A stretch of DNA of 64,000 bases from the NCBI GenBank assembly GCA_963763005.1, contig CAVXMI010000007.1:5009-69008 (forward strand). Direction: 5' to 3'. This DNA is from an uncultured Actinomycetota bacterium. GTDB lineage: Bacteria; Actinomycetota; Actinomycetes; Mycobacteriales; Mycobacteriaceae. The notes below the pieces were generated by a model. It was not told the DNA's origin. It did no database searches and was given only the letters and a program-made list of their open reading frames with translations. A program made the translations under genes and the position numbers. Below, in pieces: positions 11,325 through 38,100 of this stretch. The number at the start of each line of letters is the position of its first letter. Within the stretch, counting starts at the first letter, position 1.

Positions 11325-11477
11325 CTGTTGAACCGGTATCAAAGCATGTTGCGACCGTGTCCAGCCCGTCTCGCCAATGGCACAAAGTCCTTCTCGACTA
11401 GGGACGCCATGCTCTCGTATCGGAGGTGAGAAGGCGCGATCGTTGAGATGAAGACTTTGCAGACGGGAGTAACAGGC

Positions 11478-12476
11478 ATGAACGCGCATTTTCCTGATGC
11501 CGGCACAGTCCGGACGGCTCTGGCTCTGGCTTCTCGAGCCCCCTCCGTCCACAACACGCAACCATGGCGGTGGCGGGTCGGCACGACGAGCCTGCATCTC
11601 TACTCCGACGCGAGCCTGCAACTGCCCAACACTGACCCGGACGGCCGAGACCTGATCTTGAGTTGCGGCGCGGCGCTGAATCATTGCGTCGTTGCTTTGG
11701 CATCGATCGGGTGGCAAGCCAAAGTGGCTCGTCTGCCCAATCCGGCTGACCCCAGTCACCTGGCCGCAATCGAATTGTCTCCCCAAACACCCGATCAGCT
11801 CGATATCACGCTGGCTGCGGCGATACCGCAGCGGCGAACTGATCGGCGGCACTACAGTTTCTGGCCGGTGCCGGTGGGCGATATTGCCCTGATGGCTGCG
11901 CGGGCGGCCCGGAATGGGGTGACGCTACGCCAAATCGACGCGATGGACGGGCTGAATAAGATTGTGGCGCAATCTGTCTGGGACCACGCAAATAACGATG
12001 ACTACCTTGCCGAGGTCGCGGTATGGAGCGGGCGGCACGCCGCCGTAGCCGGTGTTCCGGCCCGCAATACGCCAGTACCTGACCCCGCCGGGGCGCTACC
12101 CAGCCGGGTATTTGCTGATGCGGCGCCGGCCATGCCGCCCGGCGCATCACCGGTCGATGAGAACGCCGTAATGCTAGCGCTCGGAACCCGGACAGACGAC
12201 CGGCTGGCCAGGTTGCGCGCTGGTGAGGCCACCAGCGTTGTGCTGCTCACCGCGACAGCAATGGGATTGGCGAGTTGTCCGGTCACCGAACCGTTGGAGA
12301 TCGCAGAAACACGCGAGGCGGTCCGCGCCGATGTCTTCGGTAATAGTGACTATCCCCAGATGTTGCTTCGGGTGGGCTGGGCGCCGATCAACGCAGATCC
12401 GCTGCCATCGAAGCCGCGACGTGAACTCACCGATATCGTCGAGTGGATGGCCGATTCCGGTCAATACTTGGGATAG
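11478..12476 (+). CDS. Acg-family nitroreductase-like protein (Rv3131 orthologue)
   Basis: MNAHFPDAGTVRTALALASRAPSVHNTQPWRW closely matches recalled Rv3131; also RRTDRR and QMLLRVGWAPINADPLP. Confidence 0.93.
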   Translation: MNAHFPDAGTVRTALALASRAPSVHNTQPWRWRVGTTSLHLYSDASLQLPNTDPDGRDLILSCGAALNHCVVALASIGWQAKVARLPNPADPSHLAAIELSPQTPDQLDITLAAAIPQRRTDRRHYSFWPVPVGDIALMAARAARNGVTLRQIDAMDGLNKIVAQSVWDHANNDDYLAEVAVWSGRHAAVAGVPARNTPVPDPAGALPSRVFADAAPAMPPGASPVDENAVMLALGTRTDDRLARLRAGEATSVVLLTATAMGLASCPVTEPLEIAETREAVRADVFGNSDYPQMLLRVGWAPINADPLPSKPRRELTDIVEWMADSGQYLG

Positions 12477-12559
12477 ATTTCCTCGACCGGTCCCACTCTT
12501 GATGACAACCGGCCTTGCTTAACGGGTCAAACGGCTCTGGATGATGGCAGGAGCGGGAA

Positions 12560-13048
12560 TGGACGACAGCCCTGTCGACGCACCGACCGCATCGAAGCCC
12601 TGGTCATGTCGGTCGCGCTCGTTGCGTCGCTTGTCGCCATACCTGTCGCCGGTGTGGTGAGCGCCGTGGTCTACGGCTTGCGTGATCGCCGGTATGACCA
12701 GGAGGCACACGCACGGCACGCAGTCATGGCAACGGTCACCGACACCAGGCCCCCACGTTAGCTACTGGCGAGCGCGCCGGCTCGTTCGCACACAGCACGC
12801 CAGTCAAAGTCGATGACCGCATCGAAATTTGGGTGGATAAGGACGGCAATCCGGTACGTCCGCCAACGCCGACCTGGCACGGCGTTGGCGATGCAGTTGG
12901 TACGGTAATGCTGACCCTGTTGATTCTGGGTCTCGCGACAACATCAGTGGTAACTGCGGTCGGCTCGCGGCTTGATCGGGCACGCGACGCCCAATGGGAG
13001 CGTGAGATCAGATGCTTGCAAGATGGTGGCCGGACGAATCAGCATTGA
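12560..13048 (+). pseudogene. Rv1733c-like membrane protein, disrupted
   Basis: RRTDRIEALVMSVALVASLVAIP... ends at TAG 12759-12761; the C-terminal half DDRIEIWVDKDG...DAQWEREI is in a different frame. Confidence 0.75.
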
Positions 13049-13067
13049 CAATTGTCGCCACCGAGGT

Positions 13068-13087
13068 CGTGGGACAAACGACTCTAT
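13068..13087. promoter_or_regulatory. DosR-box-like site upstream of the hydrogenase operon
   Basis: CGTGGGACAAACGACTCTAT compared with consensus TTSGGGACTWWAGTCCCSAA; 33 nt before ATG 13121. Confidence 0.6.
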
Positions 13088-13120
13088 CCAGCGCTCGCGA
13101 ATTGGGCGGATGATGTGTCG

Positions 13121-14254
13121 ATGAGCGGACACAGTGACGATTCCGGCGCTGCGTTGTTGGACATGGCTGGGCTGCACCGCCTCGTCGACCTGCTGATCGA
13201 GCGGGGTTATCGCGTGGTCGGTCCTACGTTGCGCGATAACGCGATTGTGCTCGCAGAACTCGAGTCGGCGCACGATCTTCCCCGCGGCTGGGGCGTCGAT
13301 GTGGGTCCTGGGCACTATCGGGTGCGCCGTCGCGACGACGACGCGGCATTCGCGCATTCGGCCGGCCCGCAGTCGTGGAAGCAGTTCCTGCACCCACCGC
13401 GGCAGCGAGTGTGGGCCGGCACTCGCGACGGGGCCACTGATCCCCAACCCGAAGGGGAGGTCCCGCGCTACGCGTTCCTTGGGGTGCGAGGGTGCGACCT
13501 GGCCGCGATCGCGACCCTGGACCGGGTGCTCGGCGGTTCCAAGTATCCCGGCAACTCGTTTGTCAGCCGCCGGCGGCGGATCTTCGTGGTCGCGGTGAAC
13601 TGTACAGAGCCGGGCGGGCTGTGCTTCTGCGCATCGATGGGCACCGGCCCGGCGGCCGGACCGGGTTACGACCTTGCCCTGACAGAGCGCCTCGACGGCA
13701 GTGCCGGCGGGACCCCGACCTACCTGGTCGACGTCGGCAGTCCAGAGGGCGCTGAGGTGCTCGCTGCGGTGCCGCGACGCGCGGCCAGCGGCGAGGAAAT
13801 CGACTGTGCGCGTGCCGATGTCGAGGCTGCAGCGCATCAGATGGGCCGCGAGATGCCAGACATGGATCTGCGAGACCTGCTGATCCGGTCACGCGAGTCG
13901 CCGCAGTGGGAAGAGGTGGCCAGCCGCTGCCTGACCTGCGGCAACTGCACGATGGTGTGCCCTACCTGCTTTTGCACCAGCACCGAAGATGTCAGCGACC
14001 TCGCCGGTGAACATGCCGAGCGTTGGCAGCACTGGGCGTCGTGTTTCGAGTTCGACTTCACCTACGTCCACGGTGGCGGCAGCGTCCGCCAATCCGGCGC
14101 ATCGCGTTACCGGCATTGGCTGACTCACAAGCTGGGCACCTGGCATGACCAGTTCGGCATGTCGGGTTGCGTCGGCTGCGGGCGATGCATCGCGTGGTGT
14201 CCGACTGGTATCGACATCACCGAGGAAATGAACAAGATGGCCGATGATGACTGA
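13121..14254 (+). CDS. hyhB: Group 3b [NiFe]-hydrogenase beta subunit (4Fe-4S dicluster)
   Basis: CLTCGNCTMVCPTCFC and CVGCGRCIAWCP ferredoxin motifs; YRHWLTHKL segment typical of sulfhydrogenase beta/AsrA. Confidence 0.9.
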   Translation: MSGHSDDSGAALLDMAGLHRLVDLLIERGYRVVGPTLRDNAIVLAELESAHDLPRGWGVDVGPGHYRVRRRDDDAAFAHSAGPQSWKQFLHPPRQRVWAGTRDGATDPQPEGEVPRYAFLGVRGCDLAAIATLDRVLGGSKYPGNSFVSRRRRIFVVAVNCTEPGGLCFCASMGTGPAAGPGYDLALTERLDGSAGGTPTYLVDVGSPEGAEVLAAVPRRAASGEEIDCARADVEAAAHQMGREMPDMDLRDLLIRSRESPQWEEVASRCLTCGNCTMVCPTCFCTSTEDVSDLAGEHAERWQHWASCFEFDFTYVHGGGSVRQSGASRYRHWLTHKLGTWHDQFGMSGCVGCGRCIAWCPTGIDITEEMNKMADDD

Positions 14255-15122
14255 CGGGGCGACCAGCGCCGCGCCGGTGGCAGTGACGATGGGGACCCAC
14301 CCCCCCATGGCGCCTGTCCCGTATCGCGTGCGCAGTCGCATTGTGGAGACCCCGGATTCGGCGACATTGTGCTTGGCGCCGGTTGGCGAGGCATTGCGCT
14401 CACCGGAGCCGGGCGAATTCATGATGCTCTACGCGTTCGGTGTGGGCGAGGCGGCCATCTCGATCAGCGGCGATCCCACCGTCACCGACGGCTCGATCAC
14501 GCACACGATCCGCGCGGTCGGCGCGGTCAGCCGAGCCCTACACGATGCACAGCCGGGCAGCATCGTCGGGGTGCGGGGTCCATTCGGCACCACGTGGGGA
14601 CTCGAGGAGGCCGTCGGCCGGGATCTGGTCATGGTCGCCGGTGGCGTGGGGCTGTGCCCGTTGCGTCCGGCGATCCTTGGCGCGTTGGCGCAGCGGGAAC
14701 GCTACGGCAAGGTGATGCTTATTGCGGGTGCCCGCTCACGGGCTGACTTTGTCTTCGCCGCCCAACTCGAAAAGTGGGCCGAGGACCCGCGGATCGAACT
14801 GCACGTCACGGTCGACATCCCGGTCCAGGGCTGGCACGGCGAAGTTGGATTGGTCACCGAGCCGCTGCGCCGGCTGACGCTGGACCCCGGCCGCACCACC
14901 GCATTCCTGTGCGGCCCGGAGCCGATGCTGCGCTTCGGCGCTGAGGCCCTGGCGGCTAAAGGCGTAGCCGCCCATGACATTCGGGTCTCGCTGGAACGGA
15001 ACATGCAGTGCGGGATCGGTTGGTGCGGTCATTGCCAGCTGGGCCCGTTACTGCTGTGCCGCGACGGGGCCGTCGTCGGTTACGACGTCGCCAGGCCACT
15101 GCTTCAGATCAAGGAGCTTTAG
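14244..15122 (+). CDS. hyhG: Group 3b hydrogenase gamma subunit (FAD/NAD(P)-binding, 2Fe-2S)
   Basis: RGPFG, AGGVGL, LCGP and ERNMQCGIGWCGHC motifs. Confidence 0.9.
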   Translation: MMTDGATSAAPVAVTMGTHPPMAPVPYRVRSRIVETPDSATLCLAPVGEALRSPEPGEFMMLYAFGVGEAAISISGDPTVTDGSITHTIRAVGAVSRALHDAQPGSIVGVRGPFGTTWGLEEAVGRDLVMVAGGVGLCPLRPAILGALAQRERYGKVMLIAGARSRADFVFAAQLEKWAEDPRIELHVTVDIPVQGWHGEVGLVTEPLRRLTLDPGRTTAFLCGPEPMLRFGAEALAAKGVAAHDIRVSLERNMQCGIGWCGHCQLGPLLLCRDGAVVGYDVARPLLQIKEL

Positions 15123-15881
15123 ATGAGCCCAACCACGCTGGCCGTCTGGAAATTCGCCTCCTGCGACGGTTGCCAGTTGACGCTGCTCGACTGCGAGGAC
15201 GAGTTGCTCACCCTCGCCAACCAGGTGCAGATCGCCACCTTCGCCGAGGCTTCCAGCGCAATGATCGGCGGCCCGTACGACGTGTCCCTGGTGGAGGGCT
15301 CCATCACCACCCGGCACGACGAGCAACGCATCCGCGACATCCGGGAGCAGTCGAAGGTGCTTGTCACCATCGGTGCGTGCGCGACGGCCGGGGGAGTGCA
15401 GGCGCTGCGCAACTTCGCCGACGTCACCGAGTTCACTTCGGTGGTCTATGCCAATCCGGAGTACATCGACACGCTGGCGACCTCCACGCCGACGTCGGCG
15501 CACGTCAAGGTTGATTACCAGCTGCATGGCTGTCCGATCGACCGTGGACAGCTGCTCGATACCCTCGCGGCGTTGTTGATCGGACGCAAACCACGGGTGC
15601 CGGCAAAGACCGTGTGCACGGAGTGCAAAATGCGTGGAGTGACGTGTGTCGTCGTCGCCGACGGCACCCCGTGTCTCGGCCCGGTCACCCACGCCGGCTG
15701 TGGCGCACTGTGTCCCAGGCATCGACGTGGCTGCTACGGCTGCTTCGGCCCGTCGGCGGCGCCGAGAACCGCGACATTGATCCCGCTGCTGCGCCGCGAT
15801 GGTATGTCCGACGGCGACGTCGACCGGGTCTTCTCGACGTTCAACGTGGCCAGTTTCGCCGCCGAGCGGAGCAAGCAATGA
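15123..15881 (+). CDS. hyhS: Group 3b hydrogenase small (delta) subunit
   Basis: [28 protein letters not shown] and [13 protein letters not shown]...GCYGC motifs. Confidence 0.9.
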
Positions 15882-17170
15882 CCCCGTCCACCCGCACGCT
15901 CAGCGTGGGCACGCTGACGCGGGTGGAAGGCGAAGGGGCGCTGCACGTCACGATGAAGGACGGAGCGCTGGAAAGCGTCGAGCTCAACATCTATGAGCCG
16001 CCAAGGTTTTTCGAAGCGTTTTTGCGGGGACGCGCCTATACCGAGCCGCCGGACCTGACCGCGCGGGTCTGCGGGATCTGCCCGGTCGCCTATCAGGTCA
16101 GTGCCTGCAACGCGATCGAAGACGCCTGCGGCGTTGAGGTGGACGCCGACCTGGTCGCGCTGCGGCGGTTACTGTACTGCGGGGAATGGATCCACAGCCA
16201 TGTCCTGCACATCTACCTGTTGCACGCACCGGACTTCCTGGGCTACCCCGACATCATCGCCATGAGCCGCGACCATGCTCAGGTCGTCGAGCGCGGACTG
16301 GAGCTGAAGAAGGCGGGCAACCAGCTGATGGAGTTCGTCGGCGGGCGGGCAATACACCCCGTCAATGTGCGTCTGGGCGGATTCTATTCTGTGCCAACAC
16401 GGTTAGAGTTCAGGCCGCTCGCCGAGCAGTTGCGGCGAGCCCTGGACATCGCGCTGGCCACGGTCAAGTGGGTGTCCGGGTTCGAGTTCCCCGACCTCGA
16501 GCTTGAGCACGAAATGCTGGCGCTGAGCCAGCCCGGCCGGTACCCGATCGAGAATGGCACCATCGCGCGCAGCGCCGGCCCGTCGTTTCCGGTGGCCGAC
16601 TTCACCAACCACGTAGTCGAGTCGCAGGTGCCGCATTCCACAGCCCTGCACGCCACACTCGATGGCGGCTGCCATCTGACCGGGCCGCTGGCGCGGTTTT
16701 CGCTGAATTCCTCGGCGCTATCACCGATAGCGGCGCAGGCCGCCGCCCGAGCCGGGCTCTCGGCAGAATGCCGAAATCCATTCCGCGGCATCATCGTTCG
16801 CGCAGTCGAAGTGGTTTATGCGATCGAGGAGGCGCTGCGGATCATCGACGACTACCAGCGTCCGTCGCGCCCATTCGTCGACGTTCCGGCCCGCGCCGGC
16901 ATCGGACATGGCGTCAGCGAGGCGCCCCGCGGCTTGCTGTATCACCGCTACCGGATCGGCGAGGACGGGCTGGTTTCCGCTGCGACGATCGTCCCGCCCA
17001 CCTCCCAGAATCAGGCGGCAATCGAAGCCGACCTGGCCCGCCTCGTTTCGGACAATCTCTCTCTCGACGATGCCGCGCTGACCACGTTGTGCGAGCAACT
17101 GATTCGCAGCTACGACCCCTGCATCTCCTGCTCGGCGCACTTCTTGACGCTGACGGTGCAGGGACGGTGA
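15878..17170 (+). CDS. hyhL: Group 3b [NiFe]-hydrogenase large (alpha) subunit
   Basis: RVEGEG, L1 [10 protein letters not shown] and L2 DPCISCSAH with a short C-terminal extension for protease cleavage; ATG 15878 overlaps the upstream stop. Confidence 0.95.
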
Positions 17171-17177
17171 CGGCGGG

Positions 17178-17648
17178 ATGCCCGGGAGAACCGTCGTCGT
17201 CGGCCTCGGCAATCGCTACCGGCGCGACGACGGCGTGGGCGTCGTCGCTGCCACTGCGCTAGACGAACTGGCATTACCCGGTGTTCGCGTGGTGACCGAC
17301 ATTGCCGAGCCCACGAGTCTGCTCGAGGCGTGGTCGGGTGCCCGGCTCGCCGTAGTGATCGACGCCGCAATCGTGACCCCGTCAACGCCGGGCTGCGTCC
17401 GTCGCTGCACCTTGAGGGACTTAGTCACCGCAGCAGGGTTGAGTTCGCACGGCGTTGATATCACCCGCACATACGAACTGGGTCAGGCGCTTGGCCGAGT
17501 GCCTGACGTGCTGGTGGTGGTCACCATCGAAGTAGCCGACACCGGCCATGGCACCGGTTTGACGCCCCACGTCGCAGGTGCCGTGCCAGAAGTGGTCTGC
17601 ATGGCTGTGGACGAAATCAACCGTTCCCACTGCCCGACGGACATCTAG
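17178..17648 (+). CDS. Hydrogenase maturation endopeptidase
   Basis: VVVGLGNRYRRDDGVG, VVIDAA and SSHG motifs; directly follows the large subunit. Confidence 0.9.
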   Translation: MPGRTVVVGLGNRYRRDDGVGVVAATALDELALPGVRVVTDIAEPTSLLEAWSGARLAVVIDAAIVTPSTPGCVRRCTLRDLVTAAGLSSHGVDITRTYELGQALGRVPDVLVVVTIEVADTGHGTGLTPHVAGAVPEVVCMAVDEINRSHCPTDI

Positions 17649-17667: not shown

Positions 17668-18087
17668 TCAGACCTGCTGTCGACTGTCAGTGGCGGCCAG
17701 CGAGTCGATCGCGGCGCCCAGCAGCGCGGTGACCTCGTCGGCGATCGCCTTGAGGGCAGGTTCGCCCGTCACCGCGAACAACATGCCCGGATTCATCGCC
17801 TCGACGATCACCGTGCCTGGGTCACCGGGGTCGGCGCGCACCAACACGTTGCAGGGAAGCAACAGCCCGATACCTCGATCTGTGCTGATAGCCTTGTGCG
17901 CCAACACCGGATTGCATGCACCGAGGATCAGGTAGTCCTCCATGTCCACGCCCAGCTTGGCCTTCAGTGTGTCTTTGACGTTGATTTCGGTGAGCACGCC
18001 AAACCCCTGTTGCGTGAGGGCTTCTCGAGTGCGCGCCACCGCGTCGTCGAACTGAGTTGCCAATGCTGTCGACAACGCAAGGCTCAT
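17668..18087 (-). CDS. DUF302 family protein
   Basis: QGFGVLTEINVKDTLKAKLG...YLILGACNP...IGLLLPCNVLVR. Confidence 0.88.
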   Translation of the reverse strand: MSLALSTALATQFDDAVARTREALTQQGFGVLTEINVKDTLKAKLGVDMEDYLILGACNPVLAHKAISTDRGIGLLLPCNVLVRADPGDPGTVIVEAMNPGMLFAVTGEPALKAIADEVTALLGAAIDSLAATDSRQQV

Positions 18088-18133
18088 GCTGATTCCCTTC
18101 GTATGTGGCCGCACCCTGACATGGGATCGGGCA

Positions 18134-18601
18134 TCATCCGGCGCGCGGGAGATCCCGGGTTGTCGGGTCCGCTTTTGGCGCCACCTGACTCGATGCGGGG
18201 CTCCAGCCGACATAGGTCAGGTACAGCCCGACCACTGCGAGGACGATGCTGGCGCTCACCCACAAGGGACCCATGCCAATCGTTGCGTTGGCGACCGACG
18301 TGAAGACTTTGGGAAAAGCCATCAGCAACAGTCCGCGTAGCGCGATAGCCCAGCCCATGAGGGACACGATGACCGCCGCTGTACCTCGCCAGTACGGGTG
18401 AAGCCCGATGATGACGAGCCCCGTCAGGAGAATGAAGGCGCCCGCCACCCACGTCCACAGGGAGTTGGCCTCGAATTCCGAAAGCATTGTTCGCATCTCC
18501 GATGCGCGCGCCACCACCGTCACGCCGATGATGACCAAGAACGGGCCAAGCACGCGGGCGAACATGCGCGTCCCTGGCTGCAGCGGTTGTGAAGTGCTCA
18601 T
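18134..18601 (-). CDS. Small integral membrane protein of unknown function
   Basis: 155 aa with about 4 hydrophobic segments; GGAGG SD-like sequence before ATG 18601. Confidence 0.75.
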   Translation of the reverse strand: MSTSQPLQPGTRMFARVLGPFLVIIGVTVVARASEMRTMLSEFEANSLWTWVAGAFILLTGLVIIGLHPYWRGTAAVIVSLMGWAIALRGLLLMAFPKVFTSVANATIGMGPLWVSASIVLAVVGLYLTYVGWSPASSQVAPKADPTTRDLPRAG

Positions 18602-18704
18602 TGCCGTACCTCCGTTGGGATGCCGCGCATCCGTGACGATGACAGGCCTGGTTGAGGCGCTTGCGTCCCACACCGCAATCTGAGCATTTGACCGAGGCTG
18701 CGCG

Positions 18705-18746
18705 ATAGGGACTGAAGTCCCGCGCATTCGGGACATTCGTCGCGAA
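18705..18746. promoter_or_regulatory. Tandem DosR boxes
   Basis: ATAGGGACTGAAGTCCCGCG (18705-18724) and TTCGGGACATTCGTCGCGAA (18727-18746, 17/20 to consensus). Confidence 0.85.
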
Positions 18747-19038: not shown

Positions 19039-19452
19039 CTAGTGCGGCAAGCCGAACCGGAATCGCCGACCAGTGACCATGTCCGGAATTATGCGCACAT
19101 AATGCGTTTTCTCAGTTGCAGTCCACGTCAACAGCTGGGCTCGCTCTGCTTCCTCGATCTCCTCATCGGTACGAAGCGAACGTGCCCTGCCTTGGACGAT
19201 CACGCTCCAGCCCTCGGCGACGTTGTGGTAGTCGACTTCGAACAGGACATGATTGTTTATCGCGGCGCTGACTAACTTGGTGCCCTCCGCGGTGCGGAAC
19301 AGCACGGTGCGGCGCTGGACGACGAAGTTCACGGGGAAGATCTGAGGTCGGGCGTCCACGCTGGTGACCAGCCGCCCCAGCGTCACGCTTTTCATCAGGT
19401 CCCAGCATTCATGGGCGGGCAGAATGGTGGCCCCTTCACCGGCTCCCGACAT
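19039..19452 (-). CDS. Pyridoxamine 5'-phosphate oxidase-like (split barrel) protein, Rv3129-like
   Basis: ECWDLM...LGRLV...IFPVNF...FRTAEGTKL...FEVD...GWSVIVQG. Confidence 0.88.
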   Translation of the reverse strand: MSGAGEGATILPAHECWDLMKSVTLGRLVTSVDARPQIFPVNFVVQRRTVLFRTAEGTKLVSAAINNHVLFEVDYHNVAEGWSVIVQGRARSLRTDEEIEEAERAQLLTWTATEKTHYVRIIPDMVTGRRFRFGLPH

Positions 19453-19553: not shown

Positions 19554-19811
19554 TCAAGCGGTTTGGGAAGCGTGCTTTTCGACGTAGCCGACCACATCGG
19601 CGAGTGTCCGAAGCGACGCGTAGTCGGACTCCGGGATGTCGACGTTCAGCCGCTTGTGGATACCGAGTAGAAAGTTCAGCCAGTCCATGGAATCAAGATC
19701 CACCTGATCACGGAGCAGGACGTCGTCTTCAATGTCTTCGGCATCGACTTCGGGGGCGATGGTCGTCAGCACGGACAGGACCACACTGCGAGTGTTTTCT
19801 TGTGTCGTCAT
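19554..19811 (-). CDS. Stand-alone acyl carrier protein
   Basis: 85 aa, acidic; LRDQVDLDSMDWLNF phosphopantetheine Ser motif. Confidence 0.9.
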   Translation of the reverse strand: MTTQENTRSVVLSVLTTIAPEVDAEDIEDDVLLRDQVDLDSMDWLNFLLGIHKRLNVDIPESDYASLRTLADVVGYVEKHASQTA

Positions 19812-19818
19812 TTGCCCA

Positions 19819-25845: not shown

Positions 25846-25887
25846 CTGCGGACAAATGTCCCGCCGGCCGGGGACTTCTGTCCCTAG
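25846..25887. promoter_or_regulatory. Tandem DosR boxes of the hspX promoter
   Basis: CTGCGGACAAATGTCCCGCC (25846-25865) and CCGGGGACTTCTGTCCCTAG (25868-25887). The second is nearly identical to the site I recall upstream of M. tuberculosis hspX. Confidence 0.85.
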
Positions 25888-29557: not shown

Positions 29558-29577
29558 CTGGGGACCAAGGACCCTGG
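29558..29577. promoter_or_regulatory. DosR-box-like site
   Basis: CTGGGGACCAAGGACCCTGG, 55 nt upstream of ATG 29633; a weaker site lies at 29459-29478. Confidence 0.65.
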
Positions 29578-29632
29578 CGTCCGATGTTCGCGTGCCTGAG
29601 AGTCGAAGTCAGACAGAAGGTAGGTGAGCGTA

Positions 29633-30616
29633 ATGACCCAAACGATGCTGGACATTGGGGTAATTACCAGGGCAGTGGAGTTAGCGTGCCATGCTCCCTC
29701 GCTGCACAATAGCCAACCTTGGCGGTGGGTGGTCGGAAGCACGAGTGTCGACCTGTTCGCTGATCCGCACAGAATCGTGACCGGGACTGACACCTCGGGT
29801 CGGGAAGCGATCATCAGCTGTGGCGCCGTGCTCGATCACTTTTGTGTCGCGATGGCTGCCGTTGGCTGGGATAGCGGGGTCGACCAGTTTCCCAACCCGA
29901 ACAATCTCGACCACGTTGCCTCGATCGACTTCGCTCAAATGAGCAACGTCGCCCAGGCCCGGCGTGAGCGCGCCAAGGCGATACTGCAGCGGCGAACCGA
30001 TCGACGTCCGTTCCGCGCGCCAAAGGACTGGGCGTCATTCGAAGCGGCGCTGTGCGGCTCGTACGACAGCGATTTGGCCGTGCTTGAGGTATTGGCCGAC
30101 GACGTTCGACCGCGGCTGGCGGAGGCGTCCCGGATTGCCGAGTCCGCACGGCGCTATGACGATCTTTATCATCATGAGCTGAGTTGGTGGACAGAACCTT
30201 CCAGGGAATCAGAAGGAATACCCCAAAGCGCGCTGCCATCAGAGTCGCAGGCCCGAAGAGTCGACGCAAACCGCCAATTTCCCGCCAATTGGTACGTGGA
30301 GCGGAGTTCTGGGGGCGTGCACGACCAAGCGAAGATCCTCGTGCTGTCCACGCCCGGGGACACGCGTATGGACGCCTTCAATTGCGGCCAGGTGCTTTCG
30401 GCGGTCCTACTGGAATGCACCATGGCTGGATTAGCAACATGCTCAGTGACGCACATCATGGAGATACAAGCCAGCCGTGACATCATTCGGAATCTCACGA
30501 CTGGCACAGAAGCGGTGCCTCAAATATTGATCCGGGTCGGCATCGAACCTGCGGGTGAGGTCCCGGCACCAACACCGCGGCGACCCTTGAGCGATGTGTT
30601 GGAGATTCATCGGTAG
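29633..30616 (+). CDS. Acg-family nitroreductase-like protein (Rv2032/Rv3127-like)
   Basis: [24 protein letters not shown] and ILIRVG...PTPRRP motifs. Confidence 0.92.
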
Positions 30617-30689
30617 CGAGGGGTTGACAAACAGGCAGATCGCCGGCCGGATGTTTCTAGCCGAGAAAACGGTGAAGAACTACGTATCC
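30615..30689 (+). pseudogene. dosR: 75-bp fragment of a DosR-type LuxR HTH response regulator
   Basis: Reads [25 protein letters not shown], almost identical to the recalled DosR HTH ([25 protein letters not shown]); no start or receiver domain. Confidence 0.8.
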
Positions 30690-30902
30690 CCACAGACGGA
30701 CCGTCAGGGACCCATTTCGCGCTGCGTGGCAGCTCGCACCTTCCGTTGCGGATGACACTATGACCGCCGGATCAGGAACTTTGGCTGTCTGACGGCGGTG
30801 CGCCTATGCTGGCCACAGGCACCTCGGCGTTGCCTGCTTCGTACTTTTGTTTGCGCAACGCGAGCTGCCTCATGTGGTAAGGCGTATGGAGGTAGCGGTC
30901 GG

Positions 30903-32615
30903 GTGCCCACCGACGAGAGCGGCTCGGCTTTTGCCGGGCTCGGCCAGCCTGGGCTGGTAGGCAGGATGCACGAGCAGCTCGACGAGTTGCTGGCTGCGCG
31001 CAATCAAATGGAGCAATTGCTGCGCGTAATCGTCGAGATCAGTTCAGATCTCGACCTCGACGCAACTCTGCGTCGGATCATCCTCGCGGCCAGGGAATTG
31101 ACCTCGGCTCCCTACGGCGCAGTGGCTGTCCGTGATCCCGAGGGAACGTTGGTCTCGTTTGTCCACGGGGGGATGGAGGCTGACACGGTTCAGCGGATCG
31201 GGCATCTGCCGGTTGGCAAGGGCGTTCTGGGTGTTTCGCTCGTCGAAACACCAGCGCTGCGTCTGGATGATCTGACCATGCATCCGGCTGCCTGCGGGTT
31301 CCCGGAGCACCACCCTCCCATGCGTGCTTTTCTTGGGGTGCCGATCACGATCCGGGGGACAGTATTCGGCAGCCTGTATCTGACCCATGACGATCCGGCG
31401 CGGGTGTTCTCTGCATCAGATGAGTTCGCCGCTCGCGCGTTGGCGTTTGCGGCCGCGGTCGCCATCGATAATGCGCAACTATTCCAGCGCGAGCGGACGT
31501 CGGTGAAGTGGATGGAGGCCAGCCGCGAGATCACTGCTGCGCTGCTGTCCAGCACCGAGCCGCACCGGCGCCCTTTGCAGTTGATCGCTGAACGTGCATG
31601 CGCGCTGACCGATGCCGAGCAGGCGATCGTTCTCGTTCCGATCGACTCCGACCTGCCCGTTGACGAAATCGACACCCTGGTGGTGTCTGCCGCGGTCGGG
31701 CTGCATGCCTCTGAGGTGATCGGCGAGCGGGTTCCGGTGGACGGCTCCACCAGCGGTTCCGTTTTTCGATCCGGTGAACCGCTGATCACCGAGAGGTTGA
31801 GTTACCCGATTCAGGCATTCACCGATGTCGCACAGCGCTCCGCGATCGTGATGCCGCTGCGCGCCAACGATGAAGTCGCCGGGGTGATTGCCATCGCGCG
31901 CGGTACGGACCAGCCACCATTCGACACCAGTTATCTCGACCTGGTGAGCCAGTTCGCCACTCACGCAGCGATAGCACTCATGCTCGCGTCAGGCCGCCAG
32001 AATGCGCGACAGCTAACTATTCTGGCCGAGCGCGAGCGCATCGCGCACGACTTGCACGACCATGTCATCCAAAGGCTGTTCGCCGCAGGCATGGATCTGC
32101 AGGGCACGCTTGCCAGGGCACGCTCACCGGAGGTCATCGACCGGCTCAACCGCACACTGGATGGCCTGCAAACCGTCATCGAGGAGATCCGCACCACCAT
32201 CTTCCAGCTAAAATCCCCATCGGGGCACGATGGCGGTTTTCGGCACCGGATTCAGCGTGTGGTTGCCGACCTGACCGAGAATCGTGACATCGTCACCGCC
32301 GTGCAGATGCACGGACCGTTGACGGCCGTTGGCGGCGAACTTGCCGAGCACGCCGAAGCGGTCACCACCGAAGCCATCAGCAACGCCATTCGCCATTCTG
32401 GCGCAACCCGGCTGACCGTCGAGGTCAGTGTCGCTGACATGTTCACTGTCGGCATCATCGACAACGGCTGTGGCGTGCCCGCCGACAATCCGCGCCGCAG
32501 CGGCTTAGCCAATATGAAGCACCGCGCTGAACAACTCGGTGGCACCTGCGAGATCATCACACCACCTGAGGGTGGCACCCGGGTCCACTGGACTGCTCCG
32601 CTGATCGACCCCTAA
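30903..32615 (+). CDS. dosT: GAF-GAF histidine kinase of the DosS/DosT family
   Basis: GFPEHHPPMRAFLGVPI (heme GAF-A segment), HDLHDHVIQRLF phospho-His, SNAIRH and DNGCG. The start at GTG 30903 after GGAGG is inferred. Confidence 0.88.
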   Translation: MPTDESGSAFAGLGQPGLVGRMHEQLDELLAARNQMEQLLRVIVEISSDLDLDATLRRIILAARELTSAPYGAVAVRDPEGTLVSFVHGGMEADTVQRIGHLPVGKGVLGVSLVETPALRLDDLTMHPAACGFPEHHPPMRAFLGVPITIRGTVFGSLYLTHDDPARVFSASDEFAARALAFAAAVAIDNAQLFQRERTSVKWMEASREITAALLSSTEPHRRPLQLIAERACALTDAEQAIVLVPIDSDLPVDEIDTLVVSAAVGLHASEVIGERVPVDGSTSGSVFRSGEPLITERLSYPIQAFTDVAQRSAIVMPLRANDEVAGVIAIARGTDQPPFDTSYLDLVSQFATHAAIALMLASGRQNARQLTILAERERIAHDLHDHVIQRLFAAGMDLQGTLARARSPEVIDRLNRTLDGLQTVIEEIRTTIFQLKSPSGHDGGFRHRIQRVVADLTENRDIVTAVQMHGPLTAVGGELAEHAEAVTTEAISNAIRHSGATRLTVEVSVADMFTVGIIDNGCGVPADNPRRSGLANMKHRAEQLGGTCEIITPPEGGTRVHWTAPLIDP

Positions 32616-32775: not shown

Positions 32776-33594
32776 TCATGTACGCACCACGAGTACCGAA
32801 CATCCGCGGTGGCGGGGCAAGTGGTGAGTGACTGGACCGACCATTCGTGTAACCTCGCCCGCCTGGTCGCTGCCCACTACGGCCAGTTGAATAGGTTCCT
32901 CGGTAGCGGTGAGAAATTCGGCAGCTCCGCGTCGCGCGGCAGCCGGTTGGACATGCACATCACGATACTCAGACACCCAGCGGCTAAGCCGTCGATCCAT
33001 CTGCTGGTAAGGAATTTCACCCAAACCCCATCGCCAGACTCCCAGTGCCAGAATCGGTGCCTTACGAAGTCGCGCTTCCCGGAAGCCGTGCTCGAGCACC
33101 GCGTCGTTGCCGGGTGAATCGTCGACGACGACGGCGATCCAGTCGGAATCTGAGGTCGCAGCGTCGCGGTTGGTGCGGATGATTGCCGCCGGGCATTGGG
33201 CCTCCTGAGCCACCGCGTGGGCGGTCGAGCCGAGGACCTTGCGGGCGACACGTCCGATCCCCGCGGATCCTACGCAAATCATTGCCGCGCGCCGTGATTC
33301 GTCGATCAAGGCACTTTCAGGTGATCCGTGTACAACATTGGTTTCAATCTTGACCGGCTCTTCCATGGCATGGAGCGCAGCTGTGGCGGCGCGCAGCGCC
33401 GTTTCGCCGTATTCGATATCCAGGCTGACATCATCTGCGGGTGCCCCAGCCTGTCGTTCGGGGATGGCATGGATCAGCCGTAGCGGGATGTCGCGGCAGG
33501 TGGCCTCGGCGACCGCCCACTTGGCGGCATTGATCGCGGCGTCCGAACCGTCGATACCTACGACGATCCGCTTTGGTGACTGCGGATGGTTCAT
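32776..33594 (-). CDS. Universal stress protein (Rv2624c-like)
   Basis: RIVVGIDGSDAAINAA, MICVGSAGIG...LGSTA and CSVLVVR motifs. Confidence 0.9.
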   Translation of the reverse strand: MNHPQSPKRIVVGIDGSDAAINAAKWAVAEATCRDIPLRLIHAIPERQAGAPADDVSLDIEYGETALRAATAALHAMEEPVKIETNVVHGSPESALIDESRRAAMICVGSAGIGRVARKVLGSTAHAVAQEAQCPAAIIRTNRDAATSDSDWIAVVVDDSPGNDAVLEHGFREARLRKAPILALGVWRWGLGEIPYQQMDRRLSRWVSEYRDVHVQPAAARRGAAEFLTATEEPIQLAVVGSDQAGEVTRMVGPVTHHLPRHRGCSVLVVRT

Positions 33595-33682
33595 TGCATC
33601 CTCTCGCTCGGACAGCTGGGCCACCGGGATACCCCCGGAGCCCATCAATCCGAGACGTTATTGCGCGCGGCCGGCTTTCCAG

Positions 33683-33702
33683 CAGGGCACTTTGGCCCCC
33701 CT
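33683..33702. promoter_or_regulatory. DosR-box-like site
   Basis: CAGGGCACTTTGGCCCCCTT in the divergent USP-USP intergenic region. Confidence 0.55.
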
Positions 33703-33950
33703 TTCGGGGAAATGGTCACCTGCCGGCCTCCTTCACTCGACCTCGATGGTGCGTCGGGCGGGAGACGAACGCACCTAACCATGGCATTCGACGCCGATGC
33801 GTCTGTGACCACGCTGTCGAGGTCGAAGATCGCCGCTTCGTGGTAGCGCCCGTCGCTGGTGGCCGGCCATTCGGTCAGCTTTGTGACGATGCCACAGGGT
33901 GAGCCCCGATCGAGCCCAAGCGATCCAACGAAGGTCTCACGTCCGTGTGG

Positions 33951-33970
33951 TTTGGGACTAAAGCCTCACG
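33951..33970. promoter_or_regulatory. DosR box
   Basis: TTTGGGACTAAAGCCTCACG, 49 nt upstream of ATG 34020. Confidence 0.75.
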
Positions 33971-34019
33971 ACCGACAACTGTCCGGGCAATAGAGTTTTC
34001 GGTGACTGAGGAGAACGAA

Positions 34020-34916
34020 ATGTCTGCACCCGTAAAGCATCATGGCATCGTTGTCGGAGTCGATGGGTCTGCCGCGTCGAATGCCGCCGTCTGTTGGGCA
34101 GCCCGTGAAGCGGCGATGCGCCATGTTCGGCTGACCTTGGTCCATATGGTGAACGCCGCCGTGCCGACGTGGCCGGAGATGCCGCTGGCACCCGGAATTG
34201 CGGTATGGCAGGAAGAGGACGGCCGCCAAGTCCTTGAGCAGGCGGTCAAGATCGCCGATGGCGTCTTGTCGACAGACCCGAGGATCGCCATCAAGAGCGA
34301 GCTGAGGTGTTCGCCACCTGTCCCGACGCTGGTCGATCTGTCCGAAGAGGCAGAGATGGTGGTCGTTGGCAGCTACGGGCGTGGAGCGGTGGGCCGGGTT
34401 TTGCTGGGTTCGGTTAGTTCCGGCGTGGTACGACGTGCGAGCTGTCCAGTCGCGGTGATTCGCGACGAAGATCCGTCGATGCCTCATCCCGCTGATCCCG
34501 AGCAAGCTCCGGTAGTCGTGGGAATCGATGGCTCGCCGGCCTCGGAACTTGCGACGGCTATCGCGTTCGACGAAGCTTCGCGGCGCGGTGTCGAACTGAA
34601 CGCAGTGCATGCGTGGAGCGATATTGAGGTGGTCGACCTCCCGGGGTTGGACTGGTCGGCGGTGAGGTCGGAAGCGGAGCGGGCTCTGGCCGAACGTCTG
34701 GCGGGCCGGCAAGAGCGCTACCCCGATGTCACGGTGCACCGACTCGTCGTTTGTGATCGGCCGGCCCGGCAGCTGATCAAACAGTCGCGATCGGCCCAGC
34801 TCGTCGTCCTTGGTAGCCATGGCCGAGGTGGTTTTACCGGCATGCTGCTGGGTTCGGTCAGCAACGCGGTCGTTCACTCGATCCGTACGCCCGTGATCGT
34901 GGCGCGGCCGTCGTAA
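34020..34916 (+). CDS. Universal stress protein (Rv2005c orthologue)
   Basis: HHGIVVGVDGS, GSYGRG...LGSVSS and GSHGRGGFTGMLLGSVS motifs. Confidence 0.95.
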   Translation: MSAPVKHHGIVVGVDGSAASNAAVCWAAREAAMRHVRLTLVHMVNAAVPTWPEMPLAPGIAVWQEEDGRQVLEQAVKIADGVLSTDPRIAIKSELRCSPPVPTLVDLSEEAEMVVVGSYGRGAVGRVLLGSVSSGVVRRASCPVAVIRDEDPSMPHPADPEQAPVVVGIDGSPASELATAIAFDEASRRGVELNAVHAWSDIEVVDLPGLDWSAVRSEAERALAERLAGRQERYPDVTVHRLVVCDRPARQLIKQSRSAQLVVLGSHGRGGFTGMLLGSVSNAVVHSIRTPVIVARPS

Positions 34917-34956: not shown

Positions 34957-34976
34957 GTTGGGACCTTGGGCACTGA
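34957..34976. promoter_or_regulatory. DosR-box-like site
   Basis: GTTGGGACCTTGGGCACTGA just upstream of the Rv2004c orthologue. Confidence 0.5.
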
Positions 34977-34989
34977 ACAATTTGGAGTC

Positions 34990-36507
34990 ATGGAGGTCGC
35001 GATCACCGCCGACAGGTTTGCCGAGTCACCGACGACGGCTGGGCTGCCGTACGTCGATGTGCACGAAACTCACACGGGTGTGGTGGTGCTGGCCGGCGAC
35101 CGAGCGTACAAGGCGAAGAAGCCGGTGTTTACTGACTTTCTCGATTTCCGCACACCCGAGGGGCGCGAGCGGGCGTGTTTGCGGGAAGTCGAGTTGAACA
35201 GCCGGCTGTCTCCCGGTAGTTATCTTGGGGTCGCATATCTCACCGACCCAACCGGAGGTCCTGCCGAACCGGTCGTAGTCATGCGGCGCTATCGCGACAA
35301 CGACCGGTTGGCGTCCATCGTCACGGGCGGCCTGCCCGGCGAGTCCGTTCAGGGTGTACTTGACACCATCGCCGGCGTGTTGGCTCGCTTCCACGAGCAT
35401 GCCGAGCGGAGTCCGTTAATTGATGCCAACGGCAAGGCCGGCGCGATCGACCAACGCTGGAGTGAGAACCTGTCGGAACTCCACCGCTATGCGGGCATGG
35501 CGATTACGGGCATCTCGAGCGAGTCGATCGGGCGGATTCAGCATCTTGCCGCCGAATTCATTTCGGGTCGTGCACTTCTGTTCACGCGCCGGATCGAGGA
35601 AGGATGCATCGTCGATGGCCACGCCGATCTGCTCGCCGACGATATCTTTTGGGTGGACGGCGAACCGGCCCTGCTCGATTGCCTGGAATTCGATGACCAA
35701 CTCCGCTACGTCGACCGCATCGATGACGCCGCATTCCTCGCGATGGACCTGGAGTTCTTGGACCGCAAAGACCTTGGCGACTACTTCCTCGGACGCTACA
35801 TCGCCCACTCGGCCGATACGGCACCGCCGTCGCTGCGGGACTTCTACATCGCCTATCGCGCGGTGGTACGGGCGAAGGTCGACTGCGTGCGACTGTCGCA
35901 AGGCAAATCGGAAGCCACGGTGGACGCCGCGCGGCACCTCGCCATCGCCACCCAGCACCTGGAGAACGGCGCTATTCGGCTGGCGCTCGTGGGTGGCAAT
36001 CCAGGCACCGGTAAGTCGACCCTGGCGCGCGGGCTCGCCGAACAAGTTGGGGCGCAGGTTATCTCAACTGATGACGTGCGCCGGGAACTGCGGGAATCGG
36101 GCGCCATCACCGGCGAGCCGGGTGTTCTGGACGCAGGACTATATGGCCCGGGCAACGTCACGGCCGTCTACGAGGAAGCACTACGCCGAGCACGTCTGTG
36201 TTTGATCAGTGGGCAATCAGTGATCTGCGACGGCACCTGGCGAGATCCGCACATTCGCGGCCACGCCTATCGCCTCGCCGCGGAAGCACATTCTCAGATA
36301 ATCGAACTCATGTGCTCGGCGACGGTCGAGACGACCACCGACAGAATCGAAACCAGGGCGGCGGGCAACTCCGACGCTACTCCCGAGATCGCCGCGGCCC
36401 TGGCTGCTCGGCAGAACGCCTGGGACACGGCATACCGAATAGACACCTCGCAGCCGCTTCAGTCGTCGGTGCGTAAGGCACACGATGTCTGGCGTCGATC
36501 GATCTGA
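34990..36507 (+). CDS. Aminoglycoside-phosphotransferase-like / AAA kinase fusion (Rv2004c orthologue)
   Basis: DVHETHTGVVVLAGDRAYKAKKPV, DGHADLLADDIF, LDCLEF and Walker A GGNPGTGKST. Confidence 0.93.
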   Translation: MEVAITADRFAESPTTAGLPYVDVHETHTGVVVLAGDRAYKAKKPVFTDFLDFRTPEGRERACLREVELNSRLSPGSYLGVAYLTDPTGGPAEPVVVMRRYRDNDRLASIVTGGLPGESVQGVLDTIAGVLARFHEHAERSPLIDANGKAGAIDQRWSENLSELHRYAGMAITGISSESIGRIQHLAAEFISGRALLFTRRIEEGCIVDGHADLLADDIFWVDGEPALLDCLEFDDQLRYVDRIDDAAFLAMDLEFLDRKDLGDYFLGRYIAHSADTAPPSLRDFYIAYRAVVRAKVDCVRLSQGKSEATVDAARHLAIATQHLENGAIRLALVGGNPGTGKSTLARGLAEQVGAQVISTDDVRRELRESGAITGEPGVLDAGLYGPGNVTAVYEEALRRARLCLISGQSVICDGTWRDPHIRGHAYRLAAEAHSQIIELMCSATVETTTDRIETRAAGNSDATPEIAAALAARQNAWDTAYRIDTSQPLQSSVRKAHDVWRRSI

Positions 36508-36539
36508 CACCCGCAGTGTGGGCTGAAAGGAGAACCGAC

Positions 36540-36930
36540 GTGCCAACGAACACAGATGTCACCGCCTATGCCGCAGACTTCTCGACATTGCGCCTGAGCC
36601 ATGCCGAGGAGGCCGGCGGTAAGGGCGCCAACCTGGGCGAGCTGGTCGCCGCCGGGTTACCGGTTCCGCGGGGGTTCGTCCTGCTACAGAACAGCTATCG
36701 CACGTCGATGCGGCACTGACTGCCTTGTGGCCGTGCGGTCTTCGGCAGCGATTCCGATATTTGTGCCGAGCTATTCGACGAATCCGATGGCGCTGTGCTC
36801 GATGCCATCGGTCGCATCGTGACCATAGCGCGCAAGCACGGCATCACCTCGTCGCTGTGCGGCCAGGCCCCTTCGACCAACCCGGCGGACAGTCGCGGCC
36901 GCCGAACGGCGGTTGCTGCTGGACTCAGCC
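36540..36930 (+). pseudogene. ppsA: Phosphoenolpyruvate synthase collapsed by deletions
   Basis: AAGGAG SD + GTG; AGGKGANLGELVAAGLPVPRGFV (PPDK_N), then VAVRSSA, then C-terminal LDAIGRI...GITSSLCGQAPS, in different frames within about 0.4 kb. Confidence 0.8.
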
Positions 36931-37110
36931 TGTGGTCGCGGCCGACTGGCACCACCGACGATGGTTACATCGCGGCTGGGCTACAATCGCTTTCGCTGCA
37001 AAGGAACCAAATGCTCCCGTCGGTGAGGATCAACGGCTCTGTCGGCGTGCGACACGTAATTCCAAGTGTCTTCTGAATGCGAGAACCACAGATTCATTGG
37101 GATGGTTGAC

Positions 37111-38100
37111 ATGACAGCGACGGTGCCCGATTCGGGGGTCATCCGGGACGCGGTGATGCTCGCGTGTCGTGCACCTTCGCTGCATAACAGCCAGCCCTGG
37201 CGGTGGGTTGCCGAAGGCGCGACTCTGCAGCTGTGGGCCGATCCCCGCCGGTTGATGCCGGCTACCGACCACACGGGCCGGGAACTGACGTTGAGCTGCG
37301 GCGCCGTCCTAGACCACCTGCGGGTCGCCATGGCCGCTGCTCGATGGGACAGCGTCACGGAACGGTTCCCCAATCCGGATAACCCGGATCATCTGGCGAC
37401 ACTGCAGTTCCGGCCCGTGGAGACCGTCACGGAGGCATACCGGCTGTGGGCGGATGCGATCCGTCTGCGCCGCACCGACCGATTACCGTTCGGTGCGCCA
37501 GTCGCCTGGCCGGCGCTGGAGTCGGTGCTGTCCCGCACGGTGATTCCGTACGAGGTGATGCTGGATGTGGTGGCCGACGATGAGCGGCCAAGGTTGGCCG
37601 AGGCGTCTCAGCTCACCGAGACGCTGCGCCGCTACGACACGTCGTATCTGTCCGAACTGCGATGGTGGACCTCGCCGTTCGAGTCGGACACCACCCATGT
37701 GCCAGAAAGCGCTCTGCTGTCCAGCTCGGAAGCCGCCCGAGTCGATATCGCCCGCGCGTTTCCCCCGGCAGGTGGGGGCCACCGGCGCGCCACCGTGGAC
37801 CACGACCACTCCAAAATCCTGGTGCTCTCGACTCATCATGACGACGCCCCGCTGGACGTATTGCGCTGCGGTGAGGCGTTGTCGGCTGTACTGCTCGAGT
37901 GCACCGTGGCCGGCATGGCCACCTGCACATTGACCCATATGACGGAGATGTCAATGAGCCGCAACATCATCGCGCAGATCACCGGAACGGCCGGCCGGCC
38001 GCAGCTGCTGATCCGGGTCGGTAGACCGCCGGGGAACGACCAACATGTCAAACCCACCGCTCGGCGTCCGATAGCCGAAGTCCTCGATTTCCGCGATTGA
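37111..38100 (+). CDS. acg: Acg-family nitroreductase-like protein
   Basis: [35 protein letters not shown] and HSKILVLST; the closest of the three to recalled Rv2032. Confidence 0.9.
   Translation: MTATVPDSGVIRDAVMLACRAPSLHNSQPWRWVAEGATLQLWADPRRLMPATDHTGRELTLSCGAVLDHLRVAMAAARWDSVTERFPNPDNPDHLATLQFRPVETVTEAYRLWADAIRLRRTDRLPFGAPVAWPALESVLSRTVIPYEVMLDVVADDERPRLAEASQLTETLRRYDTSYLSELRWWTSPFESDTTHVPESALLSSSEAARVDIARAFPPAGGGHRRATVDHDHSKILVLSTHHDDAPLDVLRCGEALSAVLLECTVAGMATCTLTHMTEMSMSRNIIAQITGTAGRPQLLIRVGRPPGNDQHVKPTARRPIAEVLDFRD

Follow-up and report, generated by a model that had tools for sequence, protein, structure and literature searches.

A mycobacterial DosR-type island carrying a group 3b hydrogenase beside a pyruvate dehydrogenase-type operon with its own acyl carrier protein

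A chromosomal hypoxia island and its hydrogenase

Here we describe a 64,000-nucleotide stretch of mycobacterial DNA (the window; C7:5009-69008, on contig C7 of a 5.15 Mb genome in 16 contigs, 99.5% complete) and, at 11.4-38.1 kb within it, an island where a predicted [NiFe]-hydrogenase (Hyh) lies beside a pyruvate dehydrogenase (PDH)-type operon that includes an acyl carrier protein (ACP). It is a hypoxia island of DosR type in the chromosome of a slow-growing non-tuberculous Mycobacterium. An initial annotation, made from the letters alone, had listed many components of this island, every one of which we found in its place; its assignment to the DosR type is borne out by a gene content of DosR-regulon type and by two strong tandem pairs of DosR-like boxes. 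Beyond that list we identified the ACP and PNPOx-like genes, a DUF302/membrane-protein pair, the Rv2030c-like and Rv2004c-like genes, remnants of hspX and of a dosR paralogue, and a frameshift in acsA. Open reading frames (ORFs) supported by GC content at third codon positions were scanned against Pfam and NCBIfam. The flanks are ordinary chromosomal genes (HtpG, an aldo-keto reductase, MFS, SDRs, ACADs and MlaE), and genomes of M. simiae and members of the M. kansasii group show synteny with the left flank (ACAD, ECH, acg1), which argues for a chromosomal island rather than a plasmid. GC content ranges from 62 to 69% across the window and is only slightly lower in the island than in the remainder; on these grounds both a plasmid and a recent acquisition were rejected. 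By the hydrogenase large subunit (HyhL), the nearest named relatives are M. palustre, M. numidiamassiliense and M. interjectum, at 88-89% identity.

The hydrogenase operon comprises five genes:

13121..14254, + strand: hyhB, beta subunit (Fe-S, AsrA-like); Fer4_22, best NCBIfam model sulfhydrogenase HydB
14244..15122, + strand: hyhG, gamma subunit (NAD(P)/FAD-binding, Fe-S, AsrB-like); NAD_binding_1, DHODB_Fe-S_bind, NF006220
15123..15881, + strand: hyhS, small (delta) subunit; Oxidored_q6, best NCBIfam model ShyD/HydD
15878..17170, + strand: hyhL, [NiFe] large (alpha) subunit, intact, 430 aa, with RVCGIC and DPCISC metal-ligand motifs
17178..17648, + strand: HycI-type maturation endopeptidase (Pfam HycI)

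The start of hyhB was revised by alignment. For all four subunits, the best NCBIfam models are those of the sulfhydrogenase alpha, beta, gamma and delta subunits, and the best PDB matches of HyhL are sulfhydrogenase I alpha (242 bits), the group 3c MvhA (176 bits) and a group 3d NAD-reducing enzyme (132 bits). Sulfhydrogenase I of Pyrococcus furiosus and Thermococcus kodakarensis, the group 3b prototype (PDB 9nez, 5yxy), has the same alpha-beta-gamma-delta set, shares the CxxC metal ligands of the large subunit and is the best match for every subunit. In contrast, Hyh scores far under the NCBIfam sulfhydrogenase equivalog cut-offs (e.g., 273 vs 700 bits for ShyA), its host is an aerobe, and its genes lie within a hypoxia regulon. 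Operon architecture and the closest solved structures give good support to the prediction, in agreement with the initial annotation, that hyhBGSL encodes a group 3b [NiFe]-hydrogenase linked to NAD(P), with all four subunits intact. HypD and a second [NiFe]-hydrogenase are encoded on contig C16, so that maturation of Hyh could occur in trans.

The acsA-PDH-ACP operon and its association with the hydrogenase

Downstream of the hydrogenase and on the minus strand, a second operon runs in the order acsA-E1alpha-E1beta-E2-ACP-PNPOx:

24834..24896, - strand: tandem repeat of a 21-bp unit, three copies, GACGCACAACCGACAACAGAA, in the acsA leader (alignment)
22993..24793, - strand: acsA-type AMP-forming ligase; NF003313, 866 bits vs cut-off 729
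21989..22996, - strand: E1 alpha, PDH 'y' (alphaproteobacterial/mitochondrial) type; TIGR03182, 445 bits vs cut-off 394
21018..21992, - strand: E1 beta; NF006667, 404 bits vs cut-off 321
19819..21021, - strand: E2 dihydrolipoyl acyltransferase; Biotin_lipoyl, E3_binding and 2-oxoacid_dh, with ETTKA and DHRASDG motifs
19554..19826, - strand: stand-alone ACP, 90 aa; PP-binding, with a DLDSMD phosphopantetheine site
19039..19452, - strand: PNPOx-like protein (Pfam Pyridox_ox_2), last gene of the operon

Both E1 subunits pass the cut-offs for the heterotetrameric-E1 PDH of alphaproteobacteria and mitochondria (TIGR03182 / NF006667 / TIGR01349), and the E2 resembles that of the same complexes in its lipoyl, E3-binding and catalytic domains and its DHRxxDG motif; it scores under every NCBIfam equivalog cut-off, as the ACP does under those of the NCBIfam ACP models. 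Unlike in those systems, no E3 gene lies nearby, and the operon opens with an Acs-type ligase and closes on a private ACP, which is followed by the PNPOx-like gene in many relatives. A shared lipoamide dehydrogenase encoded elsewhere in the genome is assumed to supply E3. The island E1alpha/E1beta genes are the only E1 pair of heterotetrameric type in the genome. Orthology to M. tuberculosis BkdABC was considered and rejected, because E1alpha passes the PDH 'y' equivalog cut-off and no second E1alpha/E1beta pair was seen; that most same-genus genomes have no E1alpha match at 1e-60 was also counted against it. At this completeness and with no second pair, the genome seems to lack a branched-chain keto-acid dehydrogenase of BkdAB type.

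The ligase resembles the Bacillus-type AcsA (PRK04319) in that it passes the NF003313 cut-off and shares the catalytic lysine region (SGKIMRR); its best PDB match is 9g79 (Bacillus-type AcsA), with 520 bits over residues 61-568. It differs from that type at the A8 Arg (GERVG in 9g79, GHRLG in Salmonella Acs), which is replaced by Leu (GHLIG) near window positions 23300-23400. The same replacement is found in 19/19 island orthologues from four genera, with the pattern SAGHL[IV]GPFEVE in island-linked orthologues (the loci include L014, L023, L041, L050, L064, L075, L081, L084, L087 and L088), and suggests that the ligase may have a specialised acceptor or direction. The window copy further differs in being frameshifted after about 55 codons, with one extra base relative to five relatives at approximately 24623-24638. 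Read from the conserved GTG at 24793, the native frame runs into a stop at 24586 and the remainder of the protein follows in the +1 frame, leaving the N-terminal ~55 conserved codons out of frame with the rest. This could be either a real pseudogenising change or an assembly error. Another short repeat, AACGATGAAA, occupies the position of the leader repeat in M. gastri (locus L064).

We examined the distribution of the two units in 401 genomes drawn evenly from the GTDB family, counting as E1alpha orthologues those with at least 60% identity; the relatives are partly metagenome-assembled genomes (MAGs), in which assembly errors are possible. HyhL occurred in 60 genomes and the E1alpha orthologue in 39. 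Among genomes with HyhL, 33 had E1alpha and 27 lacked it, and among those without HyhL, E1alpha was present in 6 and absent from 335 (odds ratio 68, Fisher p = 8e-26, uncorrected for phylogeny). Both genes lay on one contig in 22 genomes, where they were 3-35 kb apart in 15 and more than 1 Mb apart in 7. The check on independent distribution that the initial annotation had named was thereby run, and the hydrogenase and PDH/acs units proved not to be independently distributed (33/39 operon carriers also carry Hyh; 15/22 linked). We show that Hyh and the PDH-type operon are clearly not independent, and that the link between them is not obligatory.

The 80 closest HyhL loci include those of the slow-growers M. 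palustre, M. interjectum, M. simiae, M. scrofulaceum, M. szulgai and M. gastri, and in at least 29 of these 80 related loci the operon lies within 10 kb of hyhL. Islands in four genera (g1, g16, g24 and g32) all combine Hyh with ACS-E1alpha-E1beta-E2, a DosT-like kinase, universal stress proteins (USPs) and Acg proteins. In three of these four genera the ACP comes after E2, and Rv2004c-like or Rv2030c-like genes occur in three of the four genus islands (G358, G224 and G121; not seen in G031). Between its hyh and acsA-PDH-ACP operons, G031 carries a WS/DGAT gene and a pair of KASIII-like genes.

Several further observations were made in these relatives. A P-type ATPase is encoded downstream of ACP in the islands of G358 (L084:10749-13340) and G224; the G358 copy, the one scanned, has a C-terminal hemerythrin domain (Pfam), and the protein could be an oxygen- or iron-sensing CtpF-like pump. 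The G224 island also encodes an OtsB1-like trehalose-phosphatase/GH65 protein. In two large complete same-genus genomes (G354:C1:4291769-4292740 and G340:C1:4548006-4548986), the E1alpha orthologue is interrupted by a TGA and sits roughly 1 Mb away from hyh, which may reflect independent decay of the operon.

In M. smegmatis, the Hyd3/Hyh genes (msmeg_3931-3927) adjoin the DosR cluster msmeg_3932-3955 and are induced by low oxygen (PMC2799521); hypoxic H2 evolution by the enzyme, with activation by DosR, has been reported, and PEPS (MSMEG_3934) and PfkB (MSMEG_3947), both of the DosR regulon, are the only strongly hypoxia-induced central-carbon enzymes (bioRxiv 10.1101/2023.09.11.557286). That cluster and our island share the four-subunit group 3b hydrogenase with its protease, near hspX, ppsA, pfkB, USPs, Acg and dosR/dosS paralogues. 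They differ in two respects: no DosR-induced PDH or ACS is reported for M. smegmatis, whereas the acsA-E1-E2-ACP operon is present here and in 33/60 HyhL-positive genomes, and hspX, pfkB, ppsA and the island dosR are remnants in this genome. A full-text literature search found no description of an acsA-E1-E2-ACP operon beside Hyh, and a 2026 paper on dormancy-regulon reduction makes no mention of hydrogenase, PDH, ppsA or pfkB. The island is of a known kind, that of the M. smegmatis Hyh/DosR cluster, with the addition of a PDH-ACP module that we did not find in the literature.

DosR-like boxes, gene remnants and the remaining genes

DosR boxes were scored as weighted 20-mer matches to TTSGGGACTWWAGTCCCSAA (M. 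tuberculosis consensus; maximum 30). The simple motif GGGACNNNNGTCCC with one mismatch gave 8 matches vs 4.5 expected, which is not significant, and the weighted score was used instead. The boxes discussed here are:

13042..13086: hyh promoter, a pair of weak DosR-like boxes (GCATTGACAATTGTCGCCAC; CGTGGGACAAACGACTCTAT), scores 18-19/30
18705..18746: the window's strongest DosR boxes, in tandem and 22 bp apart (18705/18727), scores 25 and 26
24927..24946: DosR-like box in the acsA promoter, TTGATGACTTTCGTCTCTAT, conserved in 11/11 relatives with the upstream region covered
25846..25887: tandem pair of DosR boxes preceding the hspX remnant, 22 bp apart (25846/25868), scores 23 and 24
29558..29577: acg2 DosR box, CTGGGGACCAAGGACCCTGG, score 22; relatives keep this box in their acsA-acg2 interval
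33683..33970: USP2-USP3 divergent region, three DosR-like boxes, scores 21, 20 and 22

Three matches, all within the two tandem pairs, reached at least 24/30 vs 0.2 expected by chance, so the strong tandem pairs exceed chance. At 22/30 or above there were 8 matches vs 6 expected, and the counts at both ≥22 and ≥20 equal chance; the weaker boxes therefore rest on position and on conservation in relatives. The pair at 18705/18727 stands upstream of a membrane-protein/DUF302 gene pair. For hyhB, acsA, acg2, USP2, USP3 and the Rv2004c-like gene, there are weaker sites in the 140 bp preceding each gene. The proximal box of the hyh promoter (GGGACAAACGACTCTAT, with a ...CTCTAT tail) is partly conserved in relatives, and better tandem boxes precede hyhB in a more distant genus. 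The acsA promoter box is kept amid otherwise diverged sequence in relatives, and in another genus (G224) a similar box pair, TGAGGGGCAAAAGTCACCGA ... GGTCATTCGCCTCTAT, precedes acsA. In most relatives acsA is divergent from acg2, whose strong box is CCAGGGTCCTTGGTCCCCAG. From this promoter evidence, DosR control of the hyh and acsA-PDH-ACP operons is plausible. About 5 kb to the left of the island, a short-chain dehydrogenase gene (6636-7568) is immediately preceded by a further DosR-like box (CGTGGGACGAAGGTCCCCTG, 6615-6634, score 23).

Comparison with a related MAG (G408) brought out four genes that survive in the island as remnants:

25951..26067, + strand: hspX (alpha-crystallin) remnant, an open in-frame mini-gene of 38-44 codons in which the N-terminus is joined to the C-terminus without the crystallin domain
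28235..28369, + strand: pfkB remnant, residues 258-302 of 323 (tblastn with the intact G408 PfkB, 76% identity)
30615..30689, + strand: dosR paralogue remnant, helix-turn-helix residues 162-186 only (GerE match; 96% identity to G408 DosR over 25 aa)
36558..36939, + strand: ppsA (phosphoenolpyruvate (PEP) synthase) remnant, residues 2-53 joined to 666-753 of 763

The hspX remnant retains its DosR boxes and a Shine-Dalgarno sequence. At its position G408 has an intact 144-aa HspX, and a tblastn search with this protein found no close hspX elsewhere in the window's own genome (best match 39% identity). A six-frame Pfam scan of the 24.7-26.0 kb gap detected no pfkB; a possible N-terminal scrap of pfkB was noticed by eye only. 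For ppsA, tblastn places the fragments at 36558-36713 and 36750-36939, with pieces of Pfam PPDK_N and PEP-utilizers_C, and about 1.85 kb has been deleted, as five relatives carry approximately that much more between the two fragments. The L010 contig of G408 encodes HspX, PfkB (323 aa), the DosR paralogue and PpsA (763 aa), all intact and in nearly the same order as the remnants. We also considered whether the remnants were mis-called short ORFs, which was rejected given that five relatives are longer at ppsA and G408 is full-length at all four sites. The pfkB and ppsA remnants named in the initial annotation are real, and their intact counterparts at the same positions in relatives indicate that the ancestral island encoded both. 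The order differs in the place of acg2, which adjoins acsA in G408 and follows USP1 in the window, where a 4.6-kb block (orf25267, the hspX remnant, the Rv2030c-like gene, the pfkB remnant and USP1) stands between acsA and acg2.

Intact copies of several of these genes occur elsewhere in the genome. A full-length DosR is encoded at C10:43754-44398 (82% identity to G408 DosR) with a DosS-like gene adjacent, and contig C4 carries an intact PfkB (72% identity to G408 PfkB), a PpsA-like gene (39% identity to G408 PpsA), Tgs and two KASIII-like genes. The genome thus holds several DosR-type clusters, and the C7 island has shed redundant copies. One such cluster, at C4:352400-367300, includes Acg, WS/DGAT, two KASIII-like genes, USP, the intact PfkB and the PpsA-like gene; another, at C10:37-45 kb, includes dosR-dosS, Tgs, Acg, PNPOx and USP.

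The remaining genes of the island are:

11448..12476, + strand: acg1, Acg-family nitroreductase-like (Pfam Nitroreductase)
17668..18213, - strand: DUF302 protein (Pfam DUF302)
18213..18662, - strand: 150-aa predicted membrane protein, first of the pair with DUF302 (hydrophobic segments by eye)
25267..25674, + strand: orf25267, conserved hypothetical, with homologues in G408 and on the genome's own contig C16
26124..28165, + strand: Rv2030c-like, phosphoribosyltransferase and erythromycin-esterase domains (Pfam; start revised)
28423..29337, + strand: USP1, tandem-domain universal stress protein (Pfam Usp)
29624..30616, + strand: acg2, Acg-family (Pfam)
30798..32615, + strand: DosT/DosS-like sensor kinase (GAF x2, HisKA_3, HATPase_c)
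32776..33648, - strand: USP2 (Pfam Usp)
33945..34916, + strand: USP3, tandem Usp (Pfam Usp x2), true start probably later
34966..36507, + strand: Rv2004c-like, AAA_33 kinase-like domain (Pfam)
37066..38100, + strand: acg3, Acg-family (Pfam), right edge of the island

The conserved left neighbour of the hyh operon is acg1, which lies upstream of hyhB in most of the 80 related loci. Neither the 150-aa membrane protein nor orf25267 has a Pfam match. The former has a 53% paralogue on contig C16 near USP genes, where paralogues of the two proteins adjoin each other. To our knowledge, the membrane protein and DUF302 pair is not part of the M. tuberculosis DosR regulon, and M. tuberculosis has no group 3b hydrogenase. 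The M. tuberculosis DosR-regulon block Rv2028c-Rv2032 and Rv2004c-Rv2005c resembles the island in its kinds of gene and their local order (hspX, Rv2030c-like, pfkB, USP, acg), with a DosT-like kinase nearby and tandem DosR boxes ahead of hspX.

Coupling to H2 evolution and the fate of the acetyl unit

We lean towards the reading, at somewhat better than even confidence, that this DosR-type island serves hypoxic pyruvate oxidation by the PDH-type complex coupled to H2 venting by Hyh, with the acetyl unit retained. As oxygen falls, DosR (encoded on another contig) would activate the island promoters, and the PDH-type complex would convert pyruvate to an acetyl thioester and NADH via the cell's shared lipoamide dehydrogenase. 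Hyh would then re-oxidise NAD(P)H and reduce protons to H2, as in M. smegmatis; we infer H2 production by Hyh in this organism. The acetyl unit would be kept, either as acetyl-CoA or on the operon's ACP on its way to lipid storage, or would be handled by the specialised ligase.

The initial annotation had proposed instead a linked route from fructose phosphate through PEP and pyruvate to acetyl-CoA and acetate, with electrons leaving as H2. In such an acetate-excreting fermentation the ligase would run in reverse (acetyl-CoA + AMP + PPi -> acetate + ATP). Every enzyme that this names was present in the ancestral island, given intact pfkB and ppsA in relatives and ACS and PDH beside Hyh; Syntrophus is known to use an AMP-forming ACS to make ATP, and in some archaea PpsA can have a glycolytic role, both of which count in its favour. 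However, the island has neither Pta-AckA nor an ADP-forming ACS, its AMP-forming ligase lacks the A8 Arg in all 19 orthologues, and its pfkB, ppsA and acsA are broken in this genome. The operon has a dedicated ACP, the KASIII-like and WS/DGAT genes between the operons of G031 point to lipid synthesis, and in M. smegmatis carbon is stored as glycerides in hypoxia and not excreted (bioRxiv 10.1101/2023.09.11.557286). The altered ligase, the private ACP, the G031 genes and the M. smegmatis data together make retention of the acetyl unit more likely than its excretion as acetate, and we regard an acetate fermentation as quite improbable. Of the proposed route, the ancestral pfkB and ppsA therefore hold up, whereas acetate as the end-product does not, and the island's own copy is broken here, with pfkB and ppsA reduced to remnants and acsA frameshifted.

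Two further explanations concern whether the island encodes a working pathway at all. The island might be a co-regulated collection of DosR-regulon genes that are joined by regulation and inheritance, with Hyh and the PDH-type operon independent of each other. Island gene order does vary between genomes, with the 4.6-kb block inserted between acsA and acg2 in the window; most island genes (USP, Acg, Rv2004c-like, Rv2030c-like) are metabolically unlinked to either unit; and, besides the distant placements and the Hyh genomes that lack the operon, six operon genomes lack Hyh. Against this, Hyh is present in 33/39 operon carriers vs 60/401 genomes overall, the association extends across four genera at 60-70% protein identity, and the reductant that a group 3b enzyme removes is exactly the one made by pyruvate oxidation, so that we consider a mere collection unlikely, if worth keeping in view. 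The island could also be a relic under reductive loss whose module no longer works in this genome, as the four internal-deletion remnants (hspX, pfkB, dosR paralogue, ppsA) and the frameshifted acsA within 27 kb might suggest, together with the disrupted acsA/E1alpha region of G408. Yet the four Hyh subunits, the protease, E1alpha, E1beta, E2 and ACP are all of full length and keep their catalytic motifs, the genome still encodes intact copies or paralogues of the lost pfkB, dosR and ppsA at other sites, and the single-base frameshift is possibly an assembly error. A dead module is, in our judgement, distinctly unlikely.

Several observations nevertheless weigh against hypoxic pyruvate oxidation coupled to H2 venting. 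The association statistic ignores shared ancestry, the two units lie more than 1 Mb apart in 7/22 measurable genomes, and 27 Hyh-positive genomes do not have the operon. The boxes in the hyh and acsA promoters are weak (18-21/30) and matches at that score occur at chance-level frequency, no E3-type domain was detected in any island ORF scanned by Pfam, and the acsA frameshift may inactivate the operon's first gene in this genome. M. smegmatis proteomics showed no induced PDH or ACS, which indicates that Hyh can function without the operon.

A more specific and speculative possibility, to which we give little weight, is that E1 and E2 pass the acetyl group to the private ACP instead of, or besides, CoA, that the Arg-to-Leu ligase loads or unloads this ACP, and that the NADH is vented as H2 by Hyh. 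Such an arrangement would form the carbon branch of a 'hybrid fermentation', feeding lipid storage or substrate-level ATP.

Here, our results show that Hyh is accompanied, in DosR islands across four genera, by a PDH-type operon that brings a private ACP and an Acs-type ligase with an altered motif. This genome illustrates a stepwise reduction of the dormancy island, in which hspX, pfkB, ppsA, the second dosR and perhaps acsA were lost while the hydrogenase and PDH core was kept. Judging by gene content, many slow-growing non-tuberculous mycobacteria would, unlike M. tuberculosis, retain the Hyh/PDH-ACP capacity. H2-evolving 'fermentation' by obligately aerobic mycobacteria is established for M. 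smegmatis, and the PDH-ACP operon represents a testable candidate for the carbon side of this metabolism.

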